A stretch of DNA of 64,000 nt, from positions 2,315 through 66,314 of the forward strand of contig JBDQJC010000009.1 in NCBI GenBank assembly GCA_040264055.1, read 5' to 3'. How positions within the stretch are numbered: position 1 is the stretch's first letter; every line of letters begins with the position of its first letter. A program made the position numbers and the translations under genes. Shown here piece by piece: positions 19,558 to 64,000 of the stretch. The stretch comes from Planctomycetota bacterium. GTDB lineage: Bacteria > Planctomycetota > UBA1135. A model generated the notes under the pieces. The model saw nothing but the letters and a program-made list of their open reading frames with translations, was not told the origin of the DNA and searched no databases.

Positions 19558-21297
19558 ATGATTCGATCATCTTCGATTTCAGCCCTCATGCGTCAACTTC
19601 TCGTATATGCGATCTCTATTTGGGTCCTCTCTTCATCGGTATTTGCTTCGCAATTGGGGCGTGGTCGCGAGGGTGAGACGCTTGCATCTGGAGGACTCAA
19701 TCAGGGGGCATGGATGCTGGGTCGGGTCGCCGGAGACGGCCCGACGCGCGTCGCGAGTTGGGTCGTTCATGATTCGTTCTCTTCGTCCGAACATACATAC
19801 CTCTACGTAGGTGTCTCACAAGATGCAGGATTGAGTTGGACGAGAACGCTGCTGAGAGATGAGGTCGTTTTCAATTACGGGAGTGTCTGGATTCAAGACC
19901 TTGAGTACTCGGACGACCGTGGGCTATTGGTTTACCAAATGCCGAACTCGAATATGTCGGTCCTTGCGCAATCAAGCCCGTTTGCCGAAACGTGGCGGCC
20001 TTCGGTGGCGAGTTTCGACGGGTTTCTTGAACTGGCCGCCCGCGGAAAAGATGCGCTCGTCGTCGAAGAGTCTCTGGGAGAGGTCAGGATTCGCCAGAGT
20101 TCCAATTCCGGAAGTTCGTGGTCGCAGACGGGATCATTGACTGTTCCGGGATTAGCAGAGATTTATTCTGCTTCAGCAGCCCTTTCGGGAAGTGGCGCGT
20201 GTGTGGTTTTTGCGGCTGAGACTTTCAATGACCCGGACATTGGCTTGTATTTTTCGGCGCGTCGGACGAATGGAAATTGGTCAAGCCCTCTGCGCCTTGA
20301 CGCAGACCCACATGGCACGAGTTCCTTGGTCAAGTACGACAATGTCAAGGTGTTTGCTGAGAACGGTCGAATCATCGTGAACTACCGACAGACGGGTCGA
20401 GCTGGCGCGGGTGCACTAGAGAAGGAGTGCTACCTATTGATCTCAGAGGATGCTGGTCAGAGTTGGAACGAAACGATGGTCTCTGTTCCTGGAGAAGAGA
20501 CGACTGACTACATCGTTGCGACTGAGGGAGACACGATCGTTGCCGCGTGGGTTGGCGATTCCGCACATCCTAGAACACGAGTCTTGGTTTCGAACGATGG
20601 CGGAGACAGCTTCATGCCCGTGCATTCGATTGAGCGTCTACCGGGCGAGCCGGCTGTCCCGCAGGCCCGCCTTCAGGTGTTTCTCGATGGAGCGAGGCTG
20701 TTTCTTGGGTACATGAGCGGGTCATGGACGGGGAAACAGCATCACTATTCTCCTGGGTATGTCTACTCGGTCGACTCAGGTCAATGCTGGAGCGATCCGG
20801 TCTGGTTGCGACCAGGGGAAGAGGCCATCTTCAGCCGTTCGGAATGGCATTACTCCGAGGGGGGCCTGTTAGCCTTCTATCACACCTACAATTCTCGATG
20901 GGATTTCACAGAGCTGCGCTGGACGGGCGTGCGATTTCCGTTGATCCAGGCGGTGCATCGCGGACCAGGAGAAGTGGCCCTTTACTTGACAGGTGCAGAC
21001 CCTTCCCAGCCAAAGTCGTTTGCACGTTGGGTTGCATCGACACGCATGGGCAAGGTGCCGCACCCCGAGAATCCTGCGTACCAGCTGGGACTTGGCCCAA
21101 GTCGAGCTCTCGTTTTCACGCACGCTCATCATGTGAAGTACGGGTCACGAGTACATTCCGATGGGAGTGCGCTGGCGGTGGTTACGGTGCCCGCAAGCTT
21201 GAGCGGTACGTACTACTTCCAAGCATGGGTGAACATTGGCGGCATCCTCGGAACCGGTGGAACTCCGACCTCTGATGTCTTCGAGTTGACGTTTTAA
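19558..21297 (+). CDS. Secreted BNR/Asp-box (sialidase-like propeller) protein with shared C-terminal domain
   Basis: Signal peptide; Asp boxes SQDAGLSW, SSNSGSSW, SEDAGQSW, SNDGGDSF, SVDSGQCW; C-terminus YYFQAWV..SDVFELTF. Confidence 0.75.
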   Translation: MIRSSSISALMRQLLVYAISIWVLSSSVFASQLGRGREGETLASGGLNQGAWMLGRVAGDGPTRVASWVVHDSFSSSEHTYLYVGVSQDAGLSWTRTLLRDEVVFNYGSVWIQDLEYSDDRGLLVYQMPNSNMSVLAQSSPFAETWRPSVASFDGFLELAARGKDALVVEESLGEVRIRQSSNSGSSWSQTGSLTVPGLAEIYSASAALSGSGACVVFAAETFNDPDIGLYFSARRTNGNWSSPLRLDADPHGTSSLVKYDNVKVFAENGRIIVNYRQTGRAGAGALEKECYLLISEDAGQSWNETMVSVPGEETTDYIVATEGDTIVAAWVGDSAHPRTRVLVSNDGGDSFMPVHSIERLPGEPAVPQARLQVFLDGARLFLGYMSGSWTGKQHHYSPGYVYSVDSGQCWSDPVWLRPGEEAIFSRSEWHYSEGGLLAFYHTYNSRWDFTELRWTGVRFPLIQAVHRGPGEVALYLTGADPSQPKSFARWVASTRMGKVPHPENPAYQLGLGPSRALVFTHAHHVKYGSRVHSDGSALAVVTVPASLSGTYYFQAWVNIGGILGTGGTPTSDVFELTF

Positions 21298-31125: not shown

Positions 31126-31220
31126 GCTCTTATTGGAACGACCGCGCCGCACCGCTCGCCTGGAAATTAGAGCGATTTCCCTCGCGCCGCGTCGGCTCGC
31201 TGCTTCGCTAGGATGGATCG

Positions 31221-48750: not shown

Positions 48751-49254
48751 GTGCATCGCATCATCTTCGCCCTCGTCTTTGTCCTCATGATGGTCACGGC
48801 GGGCTGGTATGCCTTTCAATTCAAGCAGGACGACCCGGCAGGCCGGGCCATGCTCGAAAGTTGGGCGGCGGGAGTCAGCGCGGCGACCAGCAGTGAGGTC
48901 GCCGGTTACAGCTGCGAGTTGAGTGCTGTGGTCGAAGGTGGCCAAGACTGGGTCCTGACCCTGAGCGTGGAAACCCGGTCTTCGGTATTCCCGATCCCCG
49001 AAAAGGAGCCGATGCGCTTCTTAGTCGAGGTGAATGATCACTCGAGCTCTGTCGGTGCAGGGCCGGACGGCGACTTTGTGATCCGAGTGCCGCTGCATGC
49101 CTTTCGGCTGAATCAGCGCGCCAACGATGTGACGATGTTGGTCGTCTCGCAGGACGGCACCGACTTTGGCGGCTGGGCCTTCGGCAACATCACCTTTGAA
49201 GAAGGTGGCGTGGGCCTCGCCGAACCGAGTTGGTTCGACGAGCTTCTCGATTAG
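48751..49254 (+). CDS. Hypothetical protein with N-terminal TM anchor
   Basis: 167 aa ORF, GTG start, hydrophobic N-terminus. Confidence 0.55.
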   Translation: MHRIIFALVFVLMMVTAGWYAFQFKQDDPAGRAMLESWAAGVSAATSSEVAGYSCELSAVVEGGQDWVLTLSVETRSSVFPIPEKEPMRFLVEVNDHSSSVGAGPDGDFVIRVPLHAFRLNQRANDVTMLVVSQDGTDFGGWAFGNITFEEGGVGLAEPSWFDELLD

Positions 49255-50762
49255 GGAACAAACTGAATCCGTCGCGGCAGCGAGGTATGGAGACCAATAG
49301 GCACGCTGCCCCATTCCTCGTACAGCACCACGGCCATCCAAAGTTCGCGACCGATCAGCAAGTGAGATCTTGGTCCAGGAGTGAGCGTCGCGAGCGCATC
49401 GCCGTCCGCATCGAGCGTGCCCCAGAATCCTGTGCTGCCCCGAATCTTGGTTCCGGCCAAGGTTCGGCCAAGGAAGGGACTCCAACCCAATGGCAGTGGG
49501 AAGTCGTTGATCCATGTCCTCTCGCCGAATGTACATTCGCTAGCGAGCACAACATAGCGCGTGCCGGCGCGGACGGAAGAAAAGTCGATCGTCGCGTAGC
49601 ACGTGTCTTGCGTGCTCGCGGAGATCGTGCCCGGATCGAGGGCTAGACCAGGAAGCAAAGAGATAACTTCTACGCCGCTGGATCCGCTTTGCATGAGCAG
49701 GTCGGTTACGCCGTCGCCGTTGTCATCCGGATAGCTTCCGATGAGACCGGTGAAGCCAAACACAGAGGAGAAGCGTTGTCCTGTGACGTACGAGTAGAAG
49801 TCGGTCCGACTCCGGTTCCACGATTCGCCGATGAGGTCATCGACCCCGTCGCCATCGATGTCGGGAAACGGAGTGAGCACTCCAGATGATGCGCCACCCA
49901 AGTTCGGCCCACTGAAAATGACCTGGCCAGTCGCGCCATCAAGGATCTGAAGGATTGAATTGAGAAAGCAGATATCGGGTGTGCCATTCCCGTTCTGATC
50001 CGGGACTGCCCCGGCGCCGGCGACGTTTTGCCACCATGGGTACTCCCAATGCTCTTGCCCCGTGGCTGCTGTCACGACACGGTAGGTTATGCCGAATACA
50101 TCTTGTGCGACAATGACTTCGGCTTGGCCGTCATGGTCAACATCGCCGAGCGGACTGCAGTAGTCGGCACCCGTGATCGCTCCGATCCGCTTGTTGCGAG
50201 CGAACGAGTAGAAGATCAGGCCAAGGTAAAAATCCGGACGAAAGCTGATCCCGATGTCCTCGAAGCCGTCTCCATCAAGATCTCCGACCTGGGAAAGACT
50301 GGAGGCGAAGCGAGGCACTCCACCAGGGTTGTCGAAACGTTGCATGAGGCTTCCGTCGATTCCCGAGTAGAGAAAGACCGCACCCTCGCCTGCGTTCGCG
50401 GTTTGCGTTGCGACGACGAACTCGTCAATGGCATCGCCATTCAAGTCACCGATCAGGAGAAGCGAGTCTCCGAGTCGATCTCCGGTGTCGCCGTCTACCC
50501 GGAATAGCGCGGAACCATCCGCCCCAGAGATCACGCGTAGGCTGCCCGCGTCGAGGCCAGCGGTTGAGTCGCTCGGATCTCCAATGAGAACATCGGCGAA
50601 CCCGTCGCCGTCGAAGTCATGAATGCGAACAAAGCGCGGCTGCCCAGGGAAGTCGCCAATCTGGCGTGACCATTCAAAGTCTCCTTGGGCGGGAGCGATC
50701 GCTACTGCAGCAATCGTGCTGACACCGGTCAGGAGGGATGAGAATTTTGTGCGAAGAATCAT
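49251..50762 (-). CDS. Secreted FG-GAP (integrin alpha-like) repeat protein with shared C-terminal domain
   Basis: ATG 50762 overlapping upstream stop; repeats DFDGDGFAD, DLNGDAID, DLDGDGFED, DVDHDG, DIDGDGVDD. Confidence 0.82.
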   Translation of the reverse strand: MILRTKFSSLLTGVSTIAAVAIAPAQGDFEWSRQIGDFPGQPRFVRIHDFDGDGFADVLIGDPSDSTAGLDAGSLRVISGADGSALFRVDGDTGDRLGDSLLLIGDLNGDAIDEFVVATQTANAGEGAVFLYSGIDGSLMQRFDNPGGVPRFASSLSQVGDLDGDGFEDIGISFRPDFYLGLIFYSFARNKRIGAITGADYCSPLGDVDHDGQAEVIVAQDVFGITYRVVTAATGQEHWEYPWWQNVAGAGAVPDQNGNGTPDICFLNSILQILDGATGQVIFSGPNLGGASSGVLTPFPDIDGDGVDDLIGESWNRSRTDFYSYVTGQRFSSVFGFTGLIGSYPDDNGDGVTDLLMQSGSSGVEVISLLPGLALDPGTISASTQDTCYATIDFSSVRAGTRYVVLASECTFGERTWINDFPLPLGWSPFLGRTLAGTKIRGSTGFWGTLDADGDALATLTPGPRSHLLIGRELWMAVVLYEEWGSVPIGLHTSLPRRIQFVP

Positions 50763-52375
50763 GGGGCAATCTCCAGAGTGAGGGGGAAGGAACACTTCGT
50801 ACCAATTCGGACTGAGCCGATAGCATCGAATAGAACTGCAGCGAGGTGAAACTCGGCGCCTACCCATGCGGACATGCCGGGGCCCGCCTGAAGGCTCGCA
50901 TACGCTCGACCGTCTGCCCCGAGTCGACCTATGAAGCCAGTCGAGTGCGGTGGAGTCATTCCCGCCATTCCAGCATCAAAGAGTTCATCCTGGCTTAAGG
51001 GGATTCTGAATCCATTGACTGAGGTAGGGCCATAACCTGTGTACGAAGCGAGAATGCGGTAGCTTGAGCCGGCGTCAGTTCGGGGGAATGTCAGGAATAG
51101 ACGCAGCGGCTCCGATGCACTGAGAGAAAGTTCGGTCGTATCTGCAATCAAGAGTCGGTTGTAGCCCGTCACGCGGACACTTCCTTCGTTTCCGTCGAAC
51201 GGAGCACCGATAAGCAGCTCAACTTGATCGTCTTGGTCGACGTCACCGAGTGTGTCGAGGCGGTAGCCGAACGAACTCTTCCTGGGACCTTGGATGCGTG
51301 TAAGAAGCCGGTGATCTGCGCTTGAATAAACGCTTACATATCCGCCCATATAGGGGCGGTCCAGCCGCTTCTGTTTCGCGCTGATTGCGTAGTCGTCAAT
51401 TCCATCGCCGTTGAAATCGCCAAGTCCGACGACTCGGGTCCCGAATCGATCATTGGGGCGCGTTCCGGAATGCTCGTGCAAAGTGATTCCGGTGCGGCCA
51501 TCCAAGATTGAGGCGCTGCCGGTCTGGCTATCGGTGAGTGGGGCGCCAACAAGCACCTCAGGGACACCGTCGTCATTGATGTCGGGCGCACGGCCGACCG
51601 CGCTTCCGAAACTGCTGCCGGCTAGACCTGACGCTCTCCAGATCGTGCGGCCGGTTGCCCCGGAAACCGCAATCACGGCACCTGTTGAGGAGCCCGCCGC
51701 AGAGTACCCAGGGATACCGATGACAAAGTCATCATGAAGGTCGCCGTTGAGGTCCGCGACAGGGGCAAAGGGGCCAGCGGGCAATCGATACATTAGGTCA
51801 CCGCTTGCGCCGGAGTGCACAAAGACGCCGCCTCCGGTGTAGGCGAAGTCGTCGAAGCCATCCGCATCAAGGTCGCCGACGCCACCGACCTTCCTGCCGA
51901 TGCTTTGCCGAGCGACTTGAGCGTCGATCACCCAGAGATCCGAACCATCTGCCCCCGAGCGCACATAGACACGTCCGCCCAAACCGCCGCTCGGTTCGCC
52001 AATCATGTAGTCGCCGATTCCATCCGCATCTACGTCCCCGGCATCGCCCACGCCATATCCGAACTCGCCAAATTGCTCGATGGCATCCTCGCGACGGACA
52101 AGCGCTCCGTTCGCGCCGGACAAGAAAACGACAGCCGGAGCTTTGTCGCCAACCCGGCTCAGCGGCTTGCCGATGAGGACATCACGGACGCCATCACCGT
52201 CCTGATCAGACACCGCGCACACGCCTGACTCCTTGGTATAGACGAAGTGGTCGCTCCAGGTCCAGCGATCGGAAACTCCGGGGTCTTGAGCGCCGCTAAA
52301 CGGTGCGAGAACCTGAAATGCGGCGCAGCCGAGTACCGCGTAACGCGCCCAGGTAACGAAGGTCGAAGTGTTCAT
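50759..52375 (-). CDS. Secreted FG-GAP (integrin alpha-like) repeat protein with shared C-terminal domain
   Basis: ATG 52375; FG..V..GDVDADG, VLVGAP, LLIGAP, SGA.G repeats. Confidence 0.85.
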   Translation of the reverse strand: MNTSTFVTWARYAVLGCAAFQVLAPFSGAQDPGVSDRWTWSDHFVYTKESGVCAVSDQDGDGVRDVLIGKPLSRVGDKAPAVVFLSGANGALVRREDAIEQFGEFGYGVGDAGDVDADGIGDYMIGEPSGGLGGRVYVRSGADGSDLWVIDAQVARQSIGRKVGGVGDLDADGFDDFAYTGGGVFVHSGASGDLMYRLPAGPFAPVADLNGDLHDDFVIGIPGYSAAGSSTGAVIAVSGATGRTIWRASGLAGSSFGSAVGRAPDINDDGVPEVLVGAPLTDSQTGSASILDGRTGITLHEHSGTRPNDRFGTRVVGLGDFNGDGIDDYAISAKQKRLDRPYMGGYVSVYSSADHRLLTRIQGPRKSSFGYRLDTLGDVDQDDQVELLIGAPFDGNEGSVRVTGYNRLLIADTTELSLSASEPLRLFLTFPRTDAGSSYRILASYTGYGPTSVNGFRIPLSQDELFDAGMAGMTPPHSTGFIGRLGADGRAYASLQAGPGMSAWVGAEFHLAAVLFDAIGSVRIGTKCSFPLTLEIAP

Positions 52376-52746
52376 TGGAATGTGATCTCTTTGGTAGAGG
52401 TTGCGACCGACGCCTTTCTGCCGACCGGTTCGTAGATCGAGGCGGAATCGCACTCGGTGTCGAATGTGATTCCGATTGGAAGGGAGCGAGCCGACTGAAT
52501 CCAGGTTGCAGAAACGTCAGAATCACTCGCATTCACTCCCACTCAATCCGGGTTTTCGCCGGTGTGAACGGGCAATGAGCACTCTTCCAAGCTTTGCGGT
52601 GCAACCGCAATCGAAGCTGCGAAGCCAGCCAGGAGTAAGAGTTCCCCCAGCTCTATTGTCCGATAACTCCCGACGCGACTCCTGCCAAGGTCATTCTTCA
52701 GCGCGCCGCTGTGGAGTCGATTTCTCTATGGCAGCTGTTTCATCAG

Positions 52747-54267
52747 CTACTGGATGACATAGCGGATTGGTTGGCTTGAGGCAGTGATCGGTCCGTTCGC
52801 GGGAAAATGCACTGCGACACCGTAGATCGGGATTCCGTGGGGAAGCCCCCAAGGAAGGTACGGATGTGCACGCGAGAATTCGCCGTTCTCGTCGAGTCTG
52901 CCGCGGAAGATTCCTGACTTGCTATGGAACTTCCATTGCAGTTCTCGCTGAGGAATAAACAGTCCATGGAAGTTGCCGCTACCGAGCCCCAGTTCATTAC
53001 GCGGATCCTGCGTGCTGACGAAGAAGAAGCGCTCGAAGGGGGCGCCGCCATCCAGGCTGATACGTAGCGTCTGATCGCCACCCGGTTGATCGACGGTCAT
53101 CTTGAATGCAGGAGCGCTGGGGACATTCTCTAGCCAGCCGATCTTGCGCCCGCTCCAAACAACGAGGTCGAGATCGTGATCACCGTCAAGATCAACCGCG
53201 GGAGCAATGCGATCGTATTGGCCGTTCGGGTCGCCGGCTGTCCGGAAGTACAGTTGGAATGAACTCTGCCCGACGTTGTCAAAGACAAGGACTTCGGCGT
53301 CATTTCGCGAGTAAGCAAACTCGATGTCTCCGTCTCCATCGAAGTCGGCGCTTGCCCCTCGCGCGTAGCCATCTGTGAAATTCGGCCAACCGTGCATAAG
53401 GTGAATACTCTCAAACGAGTAGCTTGGCCCTCCTTGTGACCAATACCCCTTGAGTGAGTGGGAAAAGTCGGTGCGCCAGTAAGTAGTCAAGACCTCCGCG
53501 AAACCATCTCGGTTGAGGTCGACAGCATCGACTAGATGAGAGTTTGAACGTTCATCGATTTCGTGTTCGACGAAGAGTGCATCTCCATCGTTTTCCCACC
53601 AGCTAATGATGCCGTCGAGAAAAATACCGTTGCCAATCGTGACCGTCACAATGTCGGGGATCTGGTCCGAGTTGAAGTCTCGGACAACGAGGTAGCCGAT
53701 CGATCCCCAGGTGCGACTCGTTCCAATGTTGTGATAAGAGAAGTTGAGTTGCCCGTCGTTCCTGAGCATGGCAAGGTGGTTGCGCTCATCTCGCACGATG
53801 AGGTCAAGGTCGCCGTCGAGATCGAGGTCTGCCGGGAATTCGAATGCGAGGAGTCCACTGGAAGACGGGAAGTCGAAAATCACGGTCCAGTCAAATTGAG
53901 CGTGGCCGAGGTTTTCGCCGATCGCGAGTTGCAGGTTCGATGCAGTGAGATATCCACAAGCGATGATGTCGAGGTCGCCATCGCCGTCCACGTCTCCTGC
54001 GCCGAGCTGCGGGATATTGCCGACTTGCCAGCCTCTAGAAGAAGAAAAACCCCCTGCGCCATCGTTCTCATGGAAACGGACCTCAGAGGCACCGGAGGCC
54101 ATCAAGTCAGCATCTCCGTCTTGATCAAAGTCACCGGCAACGACCCCGGCCCACTGGGCACCGCCTACTCCTGGAATTTCGTGATCGACCCAGTCAGATT
54201 GAGCGTGTAGCGATGGAATCGCCGCGATCCACACGGCGAGTGCGAGAATTTGAGGTGCATGTTTCAT
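52747..54267 (-). CDS. Secreted VCBS/FG-GAP repeat protein with shared C-terminal domain
   Basis: Signal peptide; DFDQDGDAD, DVDGDGDLD, DLDLDGDLD, WWENDG, WLEN. Confidence 0.82.
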   Translation of the reverse strand: MKHAPQILALAVWIAAIPSLHAQSDWVDHEIPGVGGAQWAGVVAGDFDQDGDADLMASGASEVRFHENDGAGGFSSSRGWQVGNIPQLGAGDVDGDGDLDIIACGYLTASNLQLAIGENLGHAQFDWTVIFDFPSSSGLLAFEFPADLDLDGDLDLIVRDERNHLAMLRNDGQLNFSYHNIGTSRTWGSIGYLVVRDFNSDQIPDIVTVTIGNGIFLDGIISWWENDGDALFVEHEIDERSNSHLVDAVDLNRDGFAEVLTTYWRTDFSHSLKGYWSQGGPSYSFESIHLMHGWPNFTDGYARGASADFDGDGDIEFAYSRNDAEVLVFDNVGQSSFQLYFRTAGDPNGQYDRIAPAVDLDGDHDLDLVVWSGRKIGWLENVPSAPAFKMTVDQPGGDQTLRISLDGGAPFERFFFVSTQDPRNELGLGSGNFHGLFIPQRELQWKFHSKSGIFRGRLDENGEFSRAHPYLPWGLPHGIPIYGVAVHFPANGPITASSQPIRYVIQ

Positions 54268-54374
54268 TTGGAATGACCTTTCGGCACTGTTCCTCTACAC
54301 CGCAGAAAGCCTCTCGACAAGGGGGTGAGTTCGAGAATCGCTCCTCGATCGAGCCGGTTCGAAACAGGGGCGAA

Positions 54375-55046
54375 CTAGTCGACCCGGAACATCGGGTATG
54401 GCGTTGGAAACAAGGCGCCAAGCTCGGGAACCTCGCTCGGTTGCACGTAGCCCTGCAGCATGCGCAGTTCATCCATCGCGCGTTCGGTCAAGATTTGCAA
54501 ATGCGTGTGACTGAACCAGTGGCCGGTATCGGCGCCTTCGCCGGTGATGGCGAATGAGGTGCCCGCAGTCAGGGCTTGCCCGACTTCCACCTGGAAAGCT
54601 GAGTTCAGGTGACCATAGAAGCTGAAGAAGCGCACGGCTTCAAGTTCATGGCGCAGCACCACATAACCGCCGTAGTTGCCGAGCCCAGCATCGACCCCGG
54701 TCGCGTGCACCGTCGCGTCGAGCGGGGCGTGCAAGGCTTCGCCCGCTTGCACGATGATGTCCAGGCCGGCGTGGATGACTCGTCCTTCTTCGATCATCTG
54801 CGGGAAGCGATGCAAGAGCGCAGTTCGGTCTTCCAAGTAGTTGCCAAGCCCCCAGCTCTTTCCGCTCGTTCCAAGATCGGCGAAGATCTGCGCCTGGAAG
54901 GTCTCGTAGTCGTCCGTCACATACTCGGCGACCCGCGGGTTGGCTGCGGTGAAGTCGAAGATGTACGGGTCTCCTTGCAGCAGCTCCCCAAACAAAGGGA
55001 AAGGCCGAAACGAGACTGCACGCGTTAGTTTCAGATAGCGGCTCAT
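54375..55046 (-). CDS. M23 family metallopeptidase-like protein, no signal peptide
   Basis: HAGLD (HxxxD), YGGYVVLRH, YGHL, HTHLQ (HxH). Confidence 0.82.
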   Translation of the reverse strand: MSRYLKLTRAVSFRPFPLFGELLQGDPYIFDFTAANPRVAEYVTDDYETFQAQIFADLGTSGKSWGLGNYLEDRTALLHRFPQMIEEGRVIHAGLDIIVQAGEALHAPLDATVHATGVDAGLGNYGGYVVLRHELEAVRFFSFYGHLNSAFQVEVGQALTAGTSFAITGEGADTGHWFSHTHLQILTERAMDELRMLQGYVQPSEVPELGALFPTPYPMFRVD

Positions 55047-55068
55047 GCCCAGGGCGAAGCTGCTGTGG

Positions 55069-56295
55069 CTAGGCCAAGAAAGGCTCGTCGATCGAGCGCG
55101 AAGGCTGCGTGAACCAACGCGGCCCGGTCTCGGTCATGTAGAAGTGATCTTCGAGGCGAACGCCAAATTCACCCGGGGCACAGATCATTGGTTCGTTGCT
55201 AAAGCACATGCCCGGGGCAAGTGGGGTGCGGTCGCTCGCCACCAGGTAAGGGCCTTCGTGAATGTCGAGGCCAATGCCATGGCCGGTGCGGTGCGGCAAT
55301 CCAGGCAAGGAATAGTGGGGGCCGAAGCCATGCGATTCAATGCAGCGGCGCGCGGCAGCATCGACCTCGCCGCAGGGCACGCCAATCTGCGCGGCATCGA
55401 AGGCCGCGGCCTGGGCTTCCTTCTCGGCGTTCCAAATCTGACGGTGCCGTTCAGTCGGTTCGCCAAAGACATAACTACGCGTGATGTCCGATTGATACCC
55501 GTGCAAAGTGCAGCCGGTATCGATGAGCACCATGTCTCCATCTTGCAGAGTTTGTGGGTGGGGCACGCCGTGCGGGTAGGCCGTGGCTTCGCCAAACAGC
55601 ACGATGACGAAACTGTTGCCGCCCGGTGCGCCCAAGGCTTGATGGGCCTGGTTCAAGAAAGCCTCGACCTCGGTGGTCACGATGCCTGGCCGCAAGATGG
55701 CCGCCGCGGCTTCATGCGCTTCCAAGGTCATATCCTTGGCGCGCTGCAGCAAGGCGAGTTCGGCGGCCGATTTGCAACCGCGGCAGGTCTGCACCAATGG
55801 GCCGGCATCGATCAACTCGCAATCCGGCGCGGCTGCGCGAATGCCCTCGGTAATGAAGAAAGGCGCGCTTGAATCGATCGCGATTCGCAGAGTCTTGCCG
55901 TCGGACTTGCCCAAGCCAAGCGCAGACAAAGTCTGGCGCAACAGGGTGTACGGGCTTTCGTGCTCGTGCCACAGCGCGACCGGCCCGCCGATCACCATGC
56001 GCTGCTCGAGCGTGCCGAGTTCAAAGTGCGGCGCGAGGTAGTGCAGCTTTCCATCGGCGGTCAACAGCGCGCCGACCAAGCGTTCGCTCGGGTACCAACT
56101 CGTGCCCGTGAAGTAGAGAAGGTTCGAACCGGCGTGCAGATACAGCGCGTCGATCTTGTCAGCGCGCATCTGGGCCTGCACTGCGGCAATGCGCGCCTGA
56201 TGTTCCTCGGCGCCAATCGGGGCGACACCGCCGGTCCGATCGCCAAGTAGAGCCAGTTGTTCCTGGGGAGTGCTGCCGCCGATTCCTTTTGTCAT
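55069..56295 (-). CDS. Xaa-Pro dipeptidase (M24B)
   Basis: DTG, YQSDITR, HRTGHGIGLDIHE, SNEP, GVRLEDH; ATG 56295 with GGAG upstream. Confidence 0.92.
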   Translation of the reverse strand: MTKGIGGSTPQEQLALLGDRTGGVAPIGAEEHQARIAAVQAQMRADKIDALYLHAGSNLLYFTGTSWYPSERLVGALLTADGKLHYLAPHFELGTLEQRMVIGGPVALWHEHESPYTLLRQTLSALGLGKSDGKTLRIAIDSSAPFFITEGIRAAAPDCELIDAGPLVQTCRGCKSAAELALLQRAKDMTLEAHEAAAAILRPGIVTTEVEAFLNQAHQALGAPGGNSFVIVLFGEATAYPHGVPHPQTLQDGDMVLIDTGCTLHGYQSDITRSYVFGEPTERHRQIWNAEKEAQAAAFDAAQIGVPCGEVDAAARRCIESHGFGPHYSLPGLPHRTGHGIGLDIHEGPYLVASDRTPLAPGMCFSNEPMICAPGEFGVRLEDHFYMTETGPRWFTQPSRSIDEPFLA

Positions 56296-56386
56296 CTGTT
56301 TCTCCAATGAGGCTTCTGAGGCTAGGTCGTCGCCCGCTGTCGCGCCACGAGAATCCAGCCCTCGCGACCCTTGTTAGCATGATGAA

Positions 56387-58174
56387 ATGCTGCTTTCCCT
56401 CATTTTGGCATTTTCCGCGGCCGCCCAAGAGCCGGTCTTTCCGGAAGGAGCAGAGATTCCGCGCTCGTTAACGCCTGCTGAAGCGGCGTGGCTGATCGAC
56501 CACCCCTTGTTGCCACCGGCCGGCGCGATTGCACCCCCGACCGATGTCTGGTGCCCACCCGAGTACGCGCCGATGGACGGCATTTTGATCGCTTGGGAAG
56601 GCTCGGGCAGTTGGACCACGATCCTGGCCAAGATGGCGAAAGAGATCACCACCGTCGGCGACGCCGAGGTGCACGTGATGGTGGATTCGACGAGTGAGCG
56701 CAGCTCAGCTCGCAGTAAGCTGCAAAGCAACGGCGCCGACATGAATCGCGTGGTCTTCCACGTCGTGTCGACCGACACGATTTGGATCCGCGATTACGGC
56801 CCTCGTTACATCTATCAAGGCCAGGTTCGCAGCGTGGTTGATCATGTTTACAACCGCCCGCGGCCGCGCGATGACGACCAACCGATCTACTTCGCCCAGG
56901 CGCTGGGCCACGCCCGCTACGACATTCCGCTGATTCATGGTGGGGGCAACTTCCATTTGGATGGCCTCGATGGCGGCTACGCCACGCGTTTGATCAACAA
57001 CGAAAACTCGGGCAAGACCGAGCAACAGATCGCCGACCTTTGGCGCGATTACCAGGGTCTCGAGATGGAGTTCTTTGACCCTTACTCGAGCAGTATTGAC
57101 TCGACGCAGCATCTAGATATGTGGATGCAAGTGATCGCCGACGATGTGGTCGTGATCAGCGATTGGGTCAACAATCCGGGTTCGGCGCAGGACCAAATTT
57201 GCGAAGCCGCGGTCGTCGAAATGCAGGCACGCGGGTTTACGGTGCACCGTACCCCGGCGCGCCGCAGTGGGGGCACGCACTACACCTACACCAACGTGGT
57301 GATGTGTAACGACTTGGTGCTCATCCCGAGCTACACGAACGGAACGATTACCCAATACAACGCGCAAGCGCTGGCGATCTGGCAGCAGGCTTGCCCGGGC
57401 AAGGCGATCGTGCAGATCAATGCGCAAGACATCGTCACTTCGGCGGGGGTCCTGCATTGCATCGTCATGCACCTCCCTGCGCACTTGGGTGGGGTCAACC
57501 CGACCGCACGCTTGACCACCCAGCCCGGTGGCGTTGCCTATGACGGCGGCGAGCAAGTTTTGGTCGAGTGGCTTTCCGACGACGACGTGCAAGCGACCGC
57601 AGCTGAGTTATGGCTCACTTGGAATGGCGGCGCGAATACTAACCTGGTCGCAAGTGGTCTGACTGCATCCGGCAGCACGATTTGGACGGTGCCCAGCGTG
57701 GATCTGAGCGGCGCTCAACTGGAGCTGCGCGTGTTCGACGCCGACGGTAACACTGGGTCGAATGCTTCCACCGAGTTTTCAATTGGCGATGCCGCGGCAA
57801 GCCTGATTTACGGCGACGGCAAGGCCGGAAGCCAGGGCGTACCGCAACTCGTCTCGAGCGCCTTGCCGGTGCTCGGCGCAAGTCTGGACCTACAGCTTTC
57901 CTCTGCACTACCAAGCGGCCGCGCCTACCTGATCCGAGGCTTCGCAAGTGACAACGCGAGTTTCGACGGGGCCACTATTTGGGTCGATTACGACCAAGTT
58001 TACCCTCTGCAACTCGACGCATCGGGCGCGGCGATTCTTGCCGCAAACGTGCCGAGCGGCGCGCATCTCGCTGGCTACTCGGTCTACTTCCAAGCATGGG
58101 TACCGAATGACCCGCAGGCGGCAGGCGCTGGCTGGGCAAGTTCCGCGGGCCTTGAACTGCGGCTTGGTTACTGA
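56387..58174 (+). CDS. Secreted agmatine/peptidylarginine deiminase family protein with Ig-like and shared C-terminal domains
   Basis: Signal peptide; PPEY, WIRDYGP, GGN, HLD, YTN, GVLHC; C-terminus VYFQAWV..SAGLELRLGY. Confidence 0.88.
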   Translation: MLLSLILAFSAAAQEPVFPEGAEIPRSLTPAEAAWLIDHPLLPPAGAIAPPTDVWCPPEYAPMDGILIAWEGSGSWTTILAKMAKEITTVGDAEVHVMVDSTSERSSARSKLQSNGADMNRVVFHVVSTDTIWIRDYGPRYIYQGQVRSVVDHVYNRPRPRDDDQPIYFAQALGHARYDIPLIHGGGNFHLDGLDGGYATRLINNENSGKTEQQIADLWRDYQGLEMEFFDPYSSSIDSTQHLDMWMQVIADDVVVISDWVNNPGSAQDQICEAAVVEMQARGFTVHRTPARRSGGTHYTYTNVVMCNDLVLIPSYTNGTITQYNAQALAIWQQACPGKAIVQINAQDIVTSAGVLHCIVMHLPAHLGGVNPTARLTTQPGGVAYDGGEQVLVEWLSDDDVQATAAELWLTWNGGANTNLVASGLTASGSTIWTVPSVDLSGAQLELRVFDADGNTGSNASTEFSIGDAAASLIYGDGKAGSQGVPQLVSSALPVLGASLDLQLSSALPSGRAYLIRGFASDNASFDGATIWVDYDQVYPLQLDASGAAILAANVPSGAHLAGYSVYFQAWVPNDPQAAGAGWASSAGLELRLGY

Positions 58175-58211
58175 TCGAAACAACTCATCATTTGATCAGC
58201 CTCGATTCACG

Positions 58212-58763
58212 CTATTCCTGTTTCGGCGGGAATTGCGCCAGGATTGCTTCGACGGTTTCGCGTACTCGCAGAGCTCGTTCCTGCGGCGTATCGGCGCCAA
58301 AACTATTCAGCTCGCCGATGCCGCGCCAAAGGAGGCGTTCTCCGTCCGGAGCGAGAAAGTCCAATACCAGGATGGACTCGGGATAAATCGCAAAGGTCGT
58401 GTCCGTGTAGATCGGCAGGCCGTTCCACCAAGGGTGGCCCGATGTCGAACCGTAGCTGCTCGTCCAGGCTTCAACCCGTTCGCGGGTGACGACCTGTTGA
58501 TGGACGAGAAAGTCGACCGTCGGTTCCGTGGTCAATGCGTACCCGTTCTGCTCGAGCCAAGGGTCCACTGCAGCGCGCACGCGCAATACCAAGAAGTTGC
58601 CCTGCACCAGTTCTGCGGTTTGCGGGGGTACCCCGTCGATCCAGGCGTAGCTGTGCAGGGCAGAAAAATCGACTTCGGGGTCGTAGTCGGAATCAACAGC
58701 GATGCCGGAGCATGCCGTGAGCAAGGCCAGAAGCAAACTTGCGGAACAGAGTCGAAGGTTCAT
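58212..58763 (-). CDS. DUF4136 family lipoprotein
   Basis: Lipobox LTAC, DYDPEVDF..SYAW, LVLDF..LLWRG, ILAQFPP. Confidence 0.82.
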   Translation of the reverse strand: MNLRLCSASLLLALLTACSGIAVDSDYDPEVDFSALHSYAWIDGVPPQTAELVQGNFLVLRVRAAVDPWLEQNGYALTTEPTVDFLVHQQVVTRERVEAWTSSYGSTSGHPWWNGLPIYTDTTFAIYPESILVLDFLAPDGERLLWRGIGELNSFGADTPQERALRVRETVEAILAQFPPKQE

Positions 58764-58813
58764 GGTTCATGCACTCCTTTGAATCAAGATAACGGGCTTC
58801 GATGAGTCGAGGT

Positions 58814-58850
58814 AAAGAAGAACGGGCGCCGCCAAGAGCGACGCCCGTTC
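58814..58850 (-). terminator. Rho-independent terminator after S8 peptidase
   Basis: Minus strand GAACGGGCGTCGC-TCTTG-GCGGCGCCCGTTC stem (one G-U pair) followed by TTCTTT. Confidence 0.7.
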
Positions 58851-58888
58851 TCACAGAGGCTGCACGAAATGCAGACCTGCCGGTGAGC

Positions 58889-61285
58889 CTACAGGTCGAT
58901 GTAGTTACTGACCGTGCAGCTTTGCACGTCCAAGCATTGCACACGAATGTTTCCACATGCGCCGGCTGGCACATTGACGGTGACCGAAGTTGCAGTTCCA
59001 ATCGAAGCGACTTTCGGGTTGGTAATGTCGAAGCTTGCACCTGGGCAAACTGGACCACCGTGCACGTAGTTGCCAGGTGAACCGTAGGTCCAGACAACCA
59101 CGCCACCAGCCGTTTCACCACTGACCTCGAAGGTCATTTGGCCGCCACAGCTGCCCGATTCAATCCCAACTTGGAAGCCCGCCGATCCACCGGTCGTGCC
59201 GCGAACCGCCAAGGCGTAGTCAGCGTCGACTGCACCCGTCTCCGGGTGGGTGTCTTGGTTGACTTCATCGGCGATCACTTCCACGGTCCAGTTACCCGCG
59301 ATCGGGTTTTCCAGAATGACGTGTTCGATCGGATCCTTGGTGTTCGAAGCGCCGCCTGACTGACTGAAGTTGTAGACCGTGCCATTCAAACCACGGTTGC
59401 CCCAGTAGAAGGTGCCGTTCGGATCGGTGACGCGCAGCGACAAGTCGTTGATGCGGTGCAGCGAAGAACTCGTGGTGCCGGCGCGGTCCATGTAGACCAA
59501 GGTAGCTTGGAACTCAGGGGTGCCGGGCGCGACCGTCAGTGTGTAGCTGGTCGATTCGGTTTCCTGCAGTACGTCAGTCTCGTCGACCCAGAACATGCTG
59601 GAAGCGTTGTCGTACATCTTGCGCAGGTCAGGTCGGCCCCAACCTTGATGAATGCGCTTGATGTCAGTCTGGGTGTCCGGGTACTGCCAAGCGGTGTTCA
59701 TCATGATCGCACGCGCCAAAGTCGAGTGCGGGCGGCTATCAAAGACCGAAGCCCCAGTCGTGTTGTTGAAGTAGCCGTTGTGCCACATCTCGTAGAACAG
59801 CGCGAAGTGACCCGAAACAATCGGCGTTGCACCCGAGGTGCCGCCGAAGCTGCTGGTGTTGACGCAATCAATCGAGTCGTAGAAAGCATTCATGTCCGGC
59901 TTGATGCGTCCATCTGCTGCCGGTCCAATCGATGCGCCACTGTTCCAGTTGTCGTTGGCGTTGTTGAAGTCGTTGTAGTGACGAATACCGCCAACCGAAA
60001 CAATGTTCTTGGACCAAGCCTGCGGGCGAGAATCCTGGTTGCCAGCGTTCGACTGCGACTGCGTGATGACGATGTCATTGATGTAAATGATGTCGTCCAT
60101 CTGCTGCGAGACCGAGGTGTACGAGCGGGTGCGCGCGTCACCCCAACTGTTGGTCTGGTAGACAGCCTTGTAGATCTTGCCCGGATCGACCAAGTCGGCG
60201 GTGTGCGCGTAGCGGTTGCCGCCGTAGCTGCCGTAGTCGGCCATGATGCCTTGGGCATCGGGAGCAAGACCACGGTCGGTACCGTTGGTGTCAGCAAAGT
60301 TAATGCTGAAAGTCGAGGTGCCGTGCGCGCTGAAGTTGTAGCCGCCGTGGCTGATCGGGGTGTGGCGCCAAGCGCTGTTACCACCATCGAATCCGGAGTC
60401 GAAGACCTCGGCGCGTACGCCAGTGCCATCAAAGCCGGTCAATCCTTCGACATAGTCAGCGCCCATCAAGTTGCGGACACGATCCATGTCATTCTCTGGA
60501 GCACTCCAGCGATCAATCGCGAGCACTTCGGTTTGCTGGATGACCTGGATCATTTGCTGGGGGGTCAGCGAGGCTTCCAGGATCCAACCTTCATCGATCA
60601 TGGTTTCGACTTCACCGCCAATCGCGCGCACATAGTCGGCGATGACAGCTTTCTGCACCGGGCCCCAAGCGCCCACCACGATGCGGTAGCGATCATTGAC
60701 CACGCGGCCTTGGAAGTAATCGGCGAGCAGATCGTTCTCGATCTTGTAGGCCGGGTGGAACTCTCCGACCCAGCGCACGAAAGGCAGCTTGGCAACTTTC
60801 TCGGCGGTCGCGGCATCCATTTCCCAGACGTTCGCGTGCCAGGCCAAAAAGCGATGATCGACCGCGCCGAGCGAGCGGATCTCTTCGCGCCAAGGCTCCA
60901 GGCCCTGAGTTGCGTACTGCACGATGTACAGTTCGTGGCCTTCCGGCGCTCGCAATTCATCCGGCATGGCCGGTTCGGCTTGCGAGAGCGGGTCGAACTC
61001 AAGGTAGTTCAGCTTGAGGTCATAGGAAGTCTGACGGTCGCGGCCATAGCTTTGGCCACCATCCAAAGAAACGCGATACCAGGGTGTCAGCGTGCCTTCT
61101 TCGTTTGGCGCGGTCCAAGTGATGGCCATGGTGTTGCCATGGCGAATGACCTGTGCATCGTCAGACTGGGCGGGCGCGGGAACCGCTGCCGCCAGAATTA
61201 GGGTAGAGAGGGAGAGGAGCACGGAACCTAAAGAGAAACCGCGCACAAGCGCGGCGAATCTCCAGCCTAGCATTCCAAGCTCCAT
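58889..61285 (-). CDS. Secreted S8 serine peptidase with C-terminal beta domains
   Basis: Triad FDSG, HGT, GTSGATP; GRIKPD; QGWGR; INDLSLRV; exact start uncertain. Confidence 0.88.
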   Translation of the reverse strand: MELGMLGWRFAALVRGFSLGSVLLSLSTLILAAAVPAPAQSDDAQVIRHGNTMAITWTAPNEEGTLTPWYRVSLDGGQSYGRDRQTSYDLKLNYLEFDPLSQAEPAMPDELRAPEGHELYIVQYATQGLEPWREEIRSLGAVDHRFLAWHANVWEMDAATAEKVAKLPFVRWVGEFHPAYKIENDLLADYFQGRVVNDRYRIVVGAWGPVQKAVIADYVRAIGGEVETMIDEGWILEASLTPQQMIQVIQQTEVLAIDRWSAPENDMDRVRNLMGADYVEGLTGFDGTGVRAEVFDSGFDGGNSAWRHTPISHGGYNFSAHGTSTFSINFADTNGTDRGLAPDAQGIMADYGSYGGNRYAHTADLVDPGKIYKAVYQTNSWGDARTRSYTSVSQQMDDIIYINDIVITQSQSNAGNQDSRPQAWSKNIVSVGGIRHYNDFNNANDNWNSGASIGPAADGRIKPDMNAFYDSIDCVNTSSFGGTSGATPIVSGHFALFYEMWHNGYFNNTTGASVFDSRPHSTLARAIMMNTAWQYPDTQTDIKRIHQGWGRPDLRKMYDNASSMFWVDETDVLQETESTSYTLTVAPGTPEFQATLVYMDRAGTTSSSLHRINDLSLRVTDPNGTFYWGNRGLNGTVYNFSQSGGASNTKDPIEHVILENPIAGNWTVEVIADEVNQDTHPETGAVDADYALAVRGTTGGSAGFQVGIESGSCGGQMTFEVSGETAGGVVVWTYGSPGNYVHGGPVCPGASFDITNPKVASIGTATSVTVNVPAGACGNIRVQCLDVQSCTVSNYIDL

Positions 61286-61295
61286 TGTGGCGCTG

Positions 61296-64000
61296 CTACT
61301 GCCCCAAAGCGTCGGCGCGTTTGCCGTAGTCGCGCGCGAGTTCGACTAACCCATAGCTCGCGAAGGCCTTGGCCAAGAAGCGCCAATTGCGATGGCGCTT
61401 CATCAGGCGTTCGCCAAAGAACAGCGGATGGGCAGAACTGTCTTGCGGATGGAGGGTTGCGACAATGGAAGCATCACGCAACAACTCGCCCATGGTGATC
61501 TTGCCCTGATAGACCACACACAACTGGCCTTGTGCGTCAAGCAAGAGGCTCGTCGGTAGGGGGGATCCAGGCGCCGCGCCGAGTACTTCGTAAAGGATTG
61601 CTTCGAGCGCCGAAAGCATGCGTTCGTCGGCATAGCCCGCGTGCTCGCTGAGTCCGAATCGATCGAGCAGCTCAAGCGCGCGTGCGCGTGACTCGATCGG
61701 ATCCGTGTTCAAAGTGACGATGCGCAGGCCGCGTGCAGCGAGCTGATCCGAACGCCGTTGGAATGCGCCAAACTCTTTCAAACAGTTGGCGCAGTTCACT
61801 CCCCAGAGGTTGATCAGGATTGGCCCCGGTCCGAGGCTGGCAACGTTGCGACTTGGGTCGAGGAAGGACGGGATCGGAAGCGCGTGAAGCGGGATCCTCT
61901 CGATCAATGGAATCCGTACGACCGGGTTGCCGACTCGAGGCACAGCGAGACTCGGCGCCGCAGCAAGCGTGGTTGCAGCAGAGGCTCGCGCAGTGCTTTG
62001 CGCTTCGCCCTCGATCAGGCGGTAGCTCTGGTTCACGAGCAGATCCTTCCAGGTCTCAACTTCGCCGCTCGGCCAATGCACACGCAGCTCTTCCACGCGC
62101 TTGGCCGTACCAAGTCCAAAATGCAGAGTCTTGCTGGACTGCGCCAAGAAGCTGTCGCCGGCTTGCAGGGTGCGACGGAACTCCTGGCCGCCGGCCTTCA
62201 CGAACACGCGTGCGCCGATCGCATCGCGATTGCTTTTCCGTCCCTCAAGCTGAACCGCCAAATAGCTCCCGGCATCGGCTTGATTCAGCATCAATCGAAA
62301 CCTTGGTGCCGTGCGCGAGCGTAGCAACAAGTCAAGACGGCCATCGCCATCCCAATCGGTGCTGATGACGGCGCGCCCGTCGTCAGCAAAATCCGTATGC
62401 GAGACAGCGCTGACATCTGAAAACGAGCCGTCTCCGGCATTCAAGAATAGGTGGTTCTGCTCGCCGCCACTCCAGGACACGCCCTGCGTGCGGGTGAGTT
62501 CTTGAATGCTCGACCAAGCTTGTTCGTATTCTTCGGTTGCTTCTTCATCGGTGGGGGATTGCGACGTCACGCGTCGCCAGAAGAAACTTCACAAGTCATC
62601 CTTGATCGGCCCGGTCAGAAATCCGTTGGGCGCGTAAATGTCCGGAAGCCCATCGTTATTGAAGTCGACAAACTGCGAGCCCCAACTCCAACCCGCAATC
62701 GCGATGCCGGCGGTTTCGGTAACGTCGTGGAAGTTGCCCTTACCGTCATTAGCGAGCAGCGTATTGCCGCGCGCATGGCGCACATACTCCTGCGCGACCT
62801 CTCCGTGGTTCTCGCCTTGGAACTGCTGTTGCGGCGCGATCCTGAGCCCGGCCGAGCTGAACATATTGGTGACCAATAAGTCCATGTCGCCATCGCGATC
62901 GAAGTCGGCGGTGGAAAGGCCCATGCCTGCTGCCCGGTCTTCGGCGCCGCGCTCGGTCGCGACATCGCGGAACTTACCCCCTTCGTTGAGGTAAAGGTTG
63001 TTGTCGCCAAAATCATTGGCGACATAGAGGTCCATATCGCCATCATCGTCGAAGTCTTCCCAGATTGACGCCAAGCTGAACTTGCGGTTGTTGTGGTCGA
63101 GGCCGACCTCCACCGTGGCATGGGTGAACTTGCCAGGGCCGTCGTTGCGCCAATAGAAGTTGGACGCACCATTGTTCGCGTTGTGATAAGGCGTGGGAAC
63201 GCCGCCCATGATCCCGTTCGCGACATAACGCACCGCGTACAAGTCGAGGTCGCCGTCTTGATCCGCGTCGGCGGCTGACAACGAATACACGTCTTCGGCC
63301 CCGGTTCCATTCAGCGGTGTGAAGTCACCGAAACGACCCGAGCCATCGTTGTAGGCGACCAGCAAATTGGGCCCGAGCGAAGCAACGAAATCTTGGTCTC
63401 CATCGTTATCCAGGTCGAGGAAAAGCGCCGAGCGGGTCGACTCCAAGAATCCCAGGCGACTGGCCTCAGTCGCGTCGCGCAGGCTACCGTCCGCGGTATG
63501 CATCATCAGACGGTTGGGGACGCCGCCATGATTGCAGAGGTACAAGTCGTCGCGTCCATCGCCGTTGACATCGCCCAGGCTCATGCCTTGTGAGCCGATA
63601 AAGGCTTGGCTCATCAGTCGATCAGACTTTTGGTGATAGTCATCGACACCGGTCAGGACTTCGCGTTCCCAGAAGGCAAGGTCTGCGGCGACATGCGAAG
63701 TGATCTCGCGGAACAAGGGCCGCGAGGTATGGACTTCTTCGTATTCCAGAACCGCGATCCCGCGCAAGCTCGGCTTGTCCTCGGCGTCGACCGACCAATC
63801 GGTCATCCAGACCGCATTGATTTGCACCTGCGATCCGTCTGGCTTCGAGACCGACCAATGCACCAGCAGCTTGCCGCGGAAGGAGTCCGGCTCGATTTGA
63901 AGGTCGATGAACTTCAGAAAAGGGTGGGGGTGCGCGCCGCTTAGCGTCGCCCGAATCGGTGCCGTGAGTTCGGCCAGCGGGTGTGGCTCGGTCAGGGCCG
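61296..64000 (-). CDS. CRTAC1-like FG-GAP + ASPIC/UnbV + thioredoxin-like protein, 5' end outside window; single in-frame TGA at 62589-62591 (candidate selenocysteine; otherwise two ORFs 62589..>64000 and 61296..62570)
   Basis: Frame open from the window edge; FG-GAP repeats on both sides of ..IKDDL*SFFWRRVTSQSP..; SNRDAIGARV, LHFGLG, VHWPSG (ASPIC/UnbV); NLWGVNCANC (TlpA-like CxxC). Confidence 0.8.
62561..62577 (-). promoter_or_regulatory. Candidate bacterial SECIS element
   Basis: Stem GCGACG/CGTCGC, loop CGTGA, starting 11 nt after the in-frame TGA. Confidence 0.6.

Follow-up and report, generated by a model that had tools for sequence, protein, structure and literature searches.

Six secreted proteins encoded in a 64-kb window of a Planctomycetota genome (G000:C9:2315-66314, the whole stretch of DNA analysed here) begin with different domains and end in a C-terminal beta-sandwich domain of 105-130 residues that recurs throughout the genome. 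As judged from profile comparisons, the six tails belong to one superfamily, which appears to be restricted to Planctomycetota and to occupy whole families of that phylum at a time. On orthologous cargo in other planctomycetes, the place of the domain is taken by dockerin-type tails. The domain probably serves, though with considerable room for doubt, as a swappable C-terminal docking or retention module that would bind non-covalently to a shared surface receptor or envelope polymer. Planctomycetes have Gram-negative-type cells with unusual envelopes and large sets of secreted hydrolases and sulfatases; to our knowledge, how such enzymes are exported and retained at their surface is essentially unknown.

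Kinship of the six tails

The genome comprises 3.25 Mb in 154 contigs and is 69% complete, with 1.7% contamination. Profile searches within it covered 30,877 six-frame open reading frames (ORFs) of at least 60 amino acids (aa), and 2766 crude gene calls served as background. All six ORFs are present as first described, and a Pfam scan assigns their N-terminal parts to FG-GAP (two proteins), FG-GAP_3/VCBS, PAD_porph, Peptidase_S8 and BNR_2. No Pfam or NCBIfam model covers the last ~110-130 residues of the six proteins.

The initial annotation of this DNA had proposed, from an alignment by eye, that these proteins share a C-terminal module. In pairwise BLASTP comparisons of the last 150 residues, only one of 15 pairs was significant, that of the two FG-GAP proteins (35% identity over 131 aa, E 2e-19); the BNR-PAD pair was borderline (E 0.007, with six sequences in the database) and E was at least 0.8 for each of the remaining 13, so that the alignment could not be verified pair by pair. 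Profile searches confirm the proposal nonetheless. Iterative searches with hidden Markov models (HMMs) collected 77 ORFs from the PAD tail and 71 from the S8 tail, each list holding the other seed; these make up family A. The FG-GAP tails seeded a second family, B, of 14-16 ORFs, while in this genome the BNR tail found one paralog and the VCBS tail stood alone. Families A and B align to each other in hhalign with 96.7% probability (E 3.7e-10, 99 columns). Further profile-profile comparisons tie the BNR type (9 sequences) to A (95.0%, E 3.8e-8, 91 columns) and the VCBS type (4 sequences) to both A (91.2%, E 1e-6, 94 columns) and B (95.4%, E 1.7e-8, 73 columns). There is no direct link between the BNR type and B (40.7%, E 2.9e-4, 85 columns) or between the BNR and VCBS types (1.0%, E 0.056, 77 columns), and five reversed-alignment controls reached at most 1.2%, with E at least 0.043. 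By this chain of profile links the six tails form one superfamily of four subfamilies: PAD with S8, the two FG-GAP proteins, BNR, and VCBS. The motif that had been read by eye (D-x-x-G-x-A, P, G, a hydrophobic strand, S(N) and a final strand running to the stop) is that of the consensus of the whole family, which alignments A1 and A2 define, ..YS..G.GPT..G..LDL..P......DA.G.A.....VP....G..V..QA......SN.....[VI]x-stop. The S8 tail, initially called more divergent, was misjudged and falls within the subfamily of the PAD tail.

Subfamily A is represented in the window by the tail of the PAD_porph-family deiminase (57818..58171, plus strand; gene 56387-58174), matched by the family A HMM at residues 478-589 of 595 (E 3.9e-16), and by a Cys-containing variant on the S8 subtilase (58892..59197, minus strand; gene 58889-61285), matched at residues 697-797 of 798 (E 2.3e-18). 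The latter clusters with five other Cys-containing members in the family A alignment. The FG-GAP/VCBS protein (gene 52747-54267, minus strand) carries the VCBS-type tail at 52750..53112, which the family A HMM recognises at residues 386-501 of 506 with a domain E of 1.2e-4 in a six-protein search; the four relatives in the VCBS-type profile all end 0-3 aa before the stop. Outside the 49251..59175 region, the BNR/sialidase-like protein (gene 19558-21297, plus strand) ends in the BNR-type tail at 20905..21294, with a paralog at G000:C39:2182-3957, and all nine relatives in its profile end 0-1 aa before the stop.

Both subfamily B tails lie on the minus strand, at 49254..49646 in FG-GAP protein 1 (family B HMM, residues 408-538 of 538, E 1.8e-38) and at 50762..51151 in FG-GAP protein 2 (gene 50759-52453; residues 435-564 of 564, E 2.1e-42). 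The longest ORF of protein 1 spans 49251-50867 on the same strand, but translation is likely to begin at the ATG at 50762-50760. The TGA stop of protein 2 overlaps this ATG at 50759-50762 (-), in the arrangement ATGA. The two FG-GAP proteins are tandem paralogs and probably translationally coupled, and position 50867, where the longest ORF begins, is unlikely to be a genuine start.

A terminal domain outside the named families

When the HMMs of the four subfamilies are combined, the domain is found in 96 ORFs of this genome (78 of family A, 15 of family B, two of the BNR type and one of the VCBS type), or roughly 3.5% of the crude gene calls. The expectation that a genome scan would return many matches, nearly all C-terminal and on signal-peptide proteins, was thus borne out: in 93 of the 96, no more than 10 residues separate the end of the domain from the stop, each of the 96 holds a single copy, and the carriers are enriched for signal peptides. 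Its typical chain end, S-N-x-[LV]-x-[LV]-[TVI]-[VI]-[QLPN]-stop, consists of the last strand followed by one residue. The residue before it, at position -2, is V or I in 61 of the 93 terminal tails, and no Pro/Thr-type linker precedes the domain in the tails of this genome. The three non-terminal cases, all on the minus strand, are G000:C20:25605-27263, G000:C2:69242-70912 and G000:C38:7658-9457.

Structure prediction with AlphaFold2 (AF2) yields the same immunoglobulin (Ig)-like beta-sandwich for subfamilies A and B, in keeping with the shared fold anticipated by the initial annotation. The model of family A, built on the PAD tail with 74 sequences (md4afa1ccf063), has a pLDDT of 85 and a pTM of 0.76; that of family B, built on the tail of FG-GAP protein 2 with 15 sequences (me0c76e1a7b14), reaches 92.4 and 0.86. 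The two models have several PDB neighbours in common (6grq_A, 6zdx_B, 3p2t_A, 2vsd_A, 3vh8_G, 7op0_B and 5axg_A). Foldseek retrieves nanobodies and Ig domains at E ~5e-4 to 2e-3 and TM ~0.5, and the VIA fold search gives Z scores of up to 10.3 for A and 8.3 for B, with no cohesin among the matches and the C-terminal domain of the type IX secretion system (T9SS) nowhere above rank 43. Since such neighbours are generic Ig-like or macroglobulin (MG)-like domains, the fold neither discriminates between explanations nor informs on function.

The possibility that the domain belongs to an already defined family was examined in Pfam, NCBIfam and PDB sequence searches, and none was matched. Scans of 74 isolated domains, one at a time and with E values of up to 1 allowed, gave no Pfam or NCBIfam family that more than one of them matched, and profile searches against PDB sequences gave a best E of 0.02. 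The nearest clusters in the ESM Atlas are unnamed "hypothetical protein" entries, most commonly from Planctomycetota, and the relatives go by the source names "hypothetical protein" or "calcium-binding protein [Planctomycetes bacterium]". In the full-text literature searched, the titles and abstract openings gave no description of the domain or of GC-type dockerins. The domain is therefore a feature undescribed in Pfam, NCBIfam, the PDB and the searched literature. It would merit a Pfam or NCBIfam model, as thousands of metagenomic proteins carry this tail unannotated.

Cargo and export signals

The proteins to which the domain is appended are diverse. A Pfam family is found on 39 of the 77 family A ORFs and none on the other 38; the tail itself is never covered. 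Peptidases among this cargo belong to S8 (six), M12B (reprolysin-like; two), M10, M28 and M14 (one each). Other enzymes include GSDH, CotH with LTD, di-haem cytochrome c peroxidase, a PETase-like hydrolase and PAD, and the repeat or binding domains comprise FG-GAP, DM13, C-type lectin, Kelch, BNR/sortilin, LVIVD and PD40. Carrier N-termini resemble typical signal peptides ending in ...A-x-A-Q. A signal-peptide heuristic was positive for 65 of the 87 carriers not cut by a contig end, compared with 831 of the 2573 remaining crude gene calls, which gives an odds ratio of 6.2. Among proteins P0171-P0197, the precomputed Pfam labels include PF26549.1 on carriers of 556 aa; this label occurs only beside PD40 cargo and probably does not denote the tail.

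Within the window, two secreted multidomain proteins are without the domain, GSDH-PKD-CBM6 at 8671-11373 (-) and S8-PKD-PKD at 34959-37058 (-), which means that tagging is not universal among the exported enzymes of this organism.

Distribution among metagenomes and Planctomycetota

The A1 profile, searched against 1.84 billion metagenomic cluster representatives, matched 8521 at E ≤ 1e-3 and 2622 at E ≤ 1e-10. In the best 150 of the 8521, a list in which summed scores favour multi-copy proteins, the last copy ends within 10 aa of the C-terminus in 145, and the penultimate residue is I or V in 124 of these 145. Many relatives of 100-170 aa also occur among the metagenomic representatives, some of which may be fragments.

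Among sequenced planctomycetes, each of the 12 genomes sampled from the family of this organism is positive, with 28-134 matches. In the same order, seven of eight other families have 9-47 matches, and one 91%-complete genome has none. An even sample of 251 genomes across the phylum contained 48 positives; about 18-24 candidates were scored per genome, so that per-genome counts are minima. Families are mostly all-positive (for example 5/5, 6/6, 4/4) or all-negative (for example 0/12, 0/13, 0/11, 0/9). None of five further genomes (two Armatimonadota, two Acidobacteriota and one Tepidisphaera genome) was positive. The proteins nearest to the PAD-family deiminase share 56-64% identity with it and all come from metagenome-assembled genomes (MAGs) labelled Planctomycetota or Planctomycetales, which makes the source of the window an uncultured planctomycete. 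On these profile matches, the domain appears to be restricted to Planctomycetota, where it is present in whole families at a time.

Exchange with dockerin-type tails on orthologous cargo

The PAD family offers a view of the domain on one cargo across lineages. Of 80 relatives, 17 keep the beta-sandwich tail, with alignment through residue ~595; all are from MAGs labelled Planctomycetota, Planctomycetales, Planctomycetaceae or Brocadiaceae. The match of the other 63, mostly labelled Phycisphaerae or Phycisphaerales, stops near residue 470; a contig end truncates three of these. Their alternative tails are 35-100 residues long, contain duplicated D-x-N-G-D-G-x-V-D-like loops and in many cases finish in ...G-C. 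A strict calcium-loop pattern is found in the last 80 aa of 37 of the 60 complete orthologs with an alternative tail, and most of the remaining 23 are dockerin-like by eye, L102, L129 and L156 being exceptions. A third tail type on PAD cargo, Cys-rich and ending ...GEWGCGASDTAGFTCP, is seen in L121, L122 and L127 from Phycisphaerales/Phycisphaeraceae MAGs and is neither dockerin-like nor a beta-sandwich. When 12 of the PAD orthologs with an alternative tail were tested against known dockerin models, NF041540, the "GC-type dockerin domain-anchored protein", matched four (42.1, 28.7, 24.9 and 22.2 bits, the cut-off being 29), and Pfam Dockerin_1 matched one, at 31.7 bits and over its cut-off.

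The replacement extends to other cargo. In five dockerin-rich genomes, GSDH homologs that match over the whole catalytic part at 42-45% identity have dockerin-like tails, as judged by eye, in six of seven ORFs. M14 carboxypeptidase homologs in the same five genomes have such tails, again by eye, in all ten distinct complete ORFs. A search for PAD orthologs in five genomes of the same order, two domain-negative ones included, gave one weak match only.

At the level of whole genomes, the two kinds of tail do not coincide. Dockerin_1 was found in 85 of the 251 phylum genomes, and NF041540 was vastly expanded in one family, with about 200 first-look candidates; neither NF041540 nor PF00404 had a match in the genome studied here. 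Family A was absent from all 22 genomes with at least 10 Dockerin_1 matches and from all seven with more than one dockerin_GC match, while 16 of the 48 domain-positive genomes had 1-3 Dockerin_1 matches. No sampled genome holds both the beta-sandwich domain and a dockerin expansion, a non-overlap that, as the genomes are mutually related and not independent, is a pattern and not a statistical test.

Where it is kept, the tail is conserved. Within the 17 PAD orthologs its mean identity (51%) falls between that of the catalytic domain (65%) and that of the Ig-like domain next to it (43%), and the PAD tail is under purifying selection. What is new here is the unification of the four subfamilies, the recognition that, on three cargo families, part of the alternative tails are dockerins, GC-type or type-I-like, and the non-overlapping expansions.

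A putative docking module at the cell surface

A position at the extreme end, unrelated signal-peptide cargo, high number, lineage restriction and exchange on orthologous cargo are hallmarks of sorting or anchoring modules. In the mechanism that we propose, a carrier would be exported via its N-terminal Sec signal peptide, and its C-terminal domain would then localise it in the way common to all carriers, by non-covalent docking at the cell surface onto a receptor or envelope polymer that they share. A less likely variant would have the domain pass its cargo to an outer-membrane route. The logic of the domain would be that of the dockerin-type tails on orthologous cargo in Phycisphaerae-type planctomycetes. 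Docking is favoured over a secretion signal because the module exchanged for the domain is a dockerin and because tandem, differently placed and stand-alone copies are tolerated. That the cargo docks at the surface, that a partner exists, and whether the domain is kept or cleaved are points that we infer.

The initial annotation had pictured a lineage-specific targeting domain with its machinery encoded elsewhere. The first half of that picture gains support, in that the domain is terminal, numerous, unnamed, of one fold and placed on signal-peptide cargo; as for the second, no machinery was found. No sorting machinery is recognisable among the genes of the window. PF14349 (SprA_N) had no match in 21 lineage genomes, seven of them at least 90% complete, or in the 69%-complete genome, in a search that had no positive control and did not extend to PorV, PorU or GldKLMN. 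TIGR04183 had no match in the genome, the control genomes being silent too; TIGR04183 and PF18962 matched none of the six proteins (E ≤ 0.1) and no more than one of the 74 isolated domains (E ≤ 1). TIGR02595 and PF09721 likewise had no match in the 69%-complete genome, with controls that were silent for TIGR02595 and gave one match for PF09721.

Several observations weigh against a docking role. No partner emerged: no neighbour family recurs around the 96 carrier genes (268 neighbours of the 2766 crude genes) beyond what duplicated contigs explain, a result that would also fit a machinery encoded elsewhere. An internal-repeat scan for a scaffoldin-like partner was negative in this incomplete genome, returning only propellers, multihaem cytochromes, CPSase, PhoD, ribosomal protein S1 and an ABC ATPase. 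Not every copy is a lone tail, either. The domain comes straight after the signal peptide, before Kelch or FG-GAP repeats, in two ORFs; one family B copy, that of G000:C38:7658-9457, is internal (residues 294-424 of 600); and two ORFs of ~140 aa, G000:C17:5117-5539 and G000:C74:906-1337, seem to consist of a signal peptide and the domain only. Among the best 150 metagenomic relatives, 20 have 2-3 near-full copies in tandem, and the 5162-aa protein P0007 has 15 internal copies with a period of about 278 residues, which looks like an adhesin-like use of the fold or else a candidate multivalent partner. The fold is generic, and the PDB entries nearest to it, at Z ~10, are Ig domains of PECAM and MG domains of complement. 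The heuristic for signal peptides is a crude one that scores 32% of the background genes as positive. The count of 96 is itself slightly inflated by near-duplicate contigs (C134/C135, C1:22772-23824 with C117:3984-5036, and C85 with C50), whose near-identical carriers could reflect strain heterogeneity or recent duplication, and it includes one marginal match, C108:4988-5407, at E 2e-4.

Part of this evidence would suit an ordinary accessory module, Ig-like or resembling a carbohydrate-binding module (CBM), that has no sorting role and instead binds substrate, spaces or stabilises, having spread by shuffling and come last by chance. Its fold would be just such a generic one, with glycosidase accessory domains and adhesin repeats as neighbours, its tandem and internal copies and the adhesin-like giant would be unexceptional, and the blank results of the neighbour analysis and the internal-repeat scan would need no explanation. 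Such a module would not be expected to be terminal in 93 of 96 ORFs and 145 of 150 metagenomic relatives, nor to stop at a fixed end residue. Di-haem peroxidases, GSDH, the deiminase, lectins and peptidases have no common substrate, and the replacement by dockerins on three cargo families, together with the non-overlapping expansions, points to a role in localisation; we regard a purely accessory function as unlikely. The terminal position is equally what a true secretion signal would show, one that, like the C-terminal domain of T9SS, would take its cargo through an outer-membrane translocon, undergo sortase-like removal and perhaps lead to covalent attachment to a surface glycolipid. The chain stops exactly one residue past the last strand, all 96 ORFs have one copy per protein, the cargo is diverse and has signal peptides, and the beta-sandwich can be aligned with the T9SS domain of mirolase (8qb1_A; Z 8.0, rmsd 2.3 over 77 residues, rank 43). 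This account is nevertheless quite improbable, given the lack of any TIGR04183/PF18962 match in the six proteins, the genome or the 74 domains and of SprA_N in the 21 lineage genomes (the latter without a positive control). Tandem, N-terminal and internal copies and domain-only proteins are unexpected for a translocation signal, and the module swapped in elsewhere, a dockerin, is one for docking and not for secretion.

The frequency of the domain as the C-terminus of secreted peptidases and its similarity in size to other beta-sandwiches of this kind also bring to mind a pro-domain akin to the PPC domain, which would aid folding or latency during export and then be cleaved off. This is highly improbable, as no PPC or P_proprotein model matches over the domain, one carrier has a separate P_proprotein upstream of it, most carriers are not peptidases, and domain-only proteins exist.

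If the docking role is carried further, it is possible, though we would stop short of calling it probable, that Planctomycetota own a localisation system unrelated to T9SS, sortase or exosortase. In such a system, a folded Ig-like C-terminal label on roughly 3% of the proteome would be read by a surface receptor or an outer-membrane machine, and the label would have been exchanged wholesale for dockerin-type ones between lineages. If true, interchangeable and lineage-specific "surface docking codes" would organise the exoenzyme coat of polysaccharide-degrading planctomycetes. In whole families of marine Planctomycetota, about 3% of the genes bear the domain; sequence alone thereby yields a candidate surface proteome, and in isolated form the domain could be used as bait for the receptor or machinery.

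Other features of the window and genome

The remaining genes of the window encode sulfatases, a sialate esterase, the GSDH-PKD-CBM6 and S8-PKD proteins mentioned above, an RND efflux system and a P-type ATPase, a content that fits a planctomycete. An Rfam scan of the window had no matches. At 61299-63863 (-), two adjoining ORFs of 424 aa each lie in one frame, with a single in-frame TGA between them (62589-62591; ...KDDL*SFFWRRV...). The upstream ORF contains four FG-GAP_3 domains and the downstream one FG-GAP_3 and UnbV_ASPIC, which combined make up the usual ASPIC/CRTAC1-like architecture; the TGA thus reflects interruption of the gene, an error in sequencing or recoding of the stop. Elsewhere in the genome, G000:C21:25497-28016 and 29629-31212 (L206 and L207) encode large multihaem cytochromes suggestive of a capacity for extracellular electron transfer; cytochrome c7/c3 repeats and a domain like that of MtrC/MtrF are present in them.

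Comparison with known systems

Several established C-terminal modules invite comparison. The tags of the PEP-CTERM/exosortase system (TIGR02595, PF09721), to which the initial annotation had likened the domain, prove a poor analogy. The tails described here end in a beta-strand, with neither a hydrophobic transmembrane helix nor a basic tail or Arg cluster, and the 69%-complete genome gave no PEP-CTERM or exosortase match.

The analogy with T9SS, drawn at the same time, holds in part. The C-terminal domains of that system (type A, TIGR04183/PF18962 Por_Secre_tail; type B, TIGR04131) likewise fold into beta-sandwiches, some 80-120 aa in length, that close the protein chain. They too occur in tens to more than 100 copies per genome on unrelated signal-peptide proteins of particular lineages, and their carriers include S8 peptidases and a PAD_porph-family enzyme, PPAD of Porphyromonas. 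The likeness in terminal position and diversity of cargo ends with the absence of any sequence match, the different phylum, the occurrence of the present domain in tandem, internally, at the N-terminus and alone, and its exchange for dockerins.

Modules that retain proteins without covalent attachment offer other parallels. Like the pre-peptidase C-terminal (PPC) domain (PF04151) and modules of the SLH type, whose repeats are non-covalent surface anchors, the domain is found C-terminally on secreted hydrolases; these modules are beta-rich or repeated, and some stand in tandem, raising avidity. The PPC domain differs in that its HMM has no match over the domain and in that the cargo range seen here is far wider than peptidases.

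In its logic, though not by membership, the domain resembles the dockerin (PF00404 Dockerin_1, NF041540) more than it does the T9SS tag. The dockerin is a duplicated calcium-loop module of 50-70 aa, unrelated in fold and sequence to the Ig-like sandwich of 105-130 aa described here; dockerin HMMs matched neither the six proteins nor the 74 isolated domains, and the AF2 models are all-beta sandwiches. Clostridial dockerins have a cohesin-type partner, for which no counterpart has been identified in the present case. What the two have in common is a C-terminal position on diverse secreted enzymes, very high numbers per genome, and interchangeability on PAD, GSDH and M14 cargo. The exchange on orthologous cargo suggests that dockerin-type tails and the beta-sandwich domain are alternative solutions to one task in planctomycetes.

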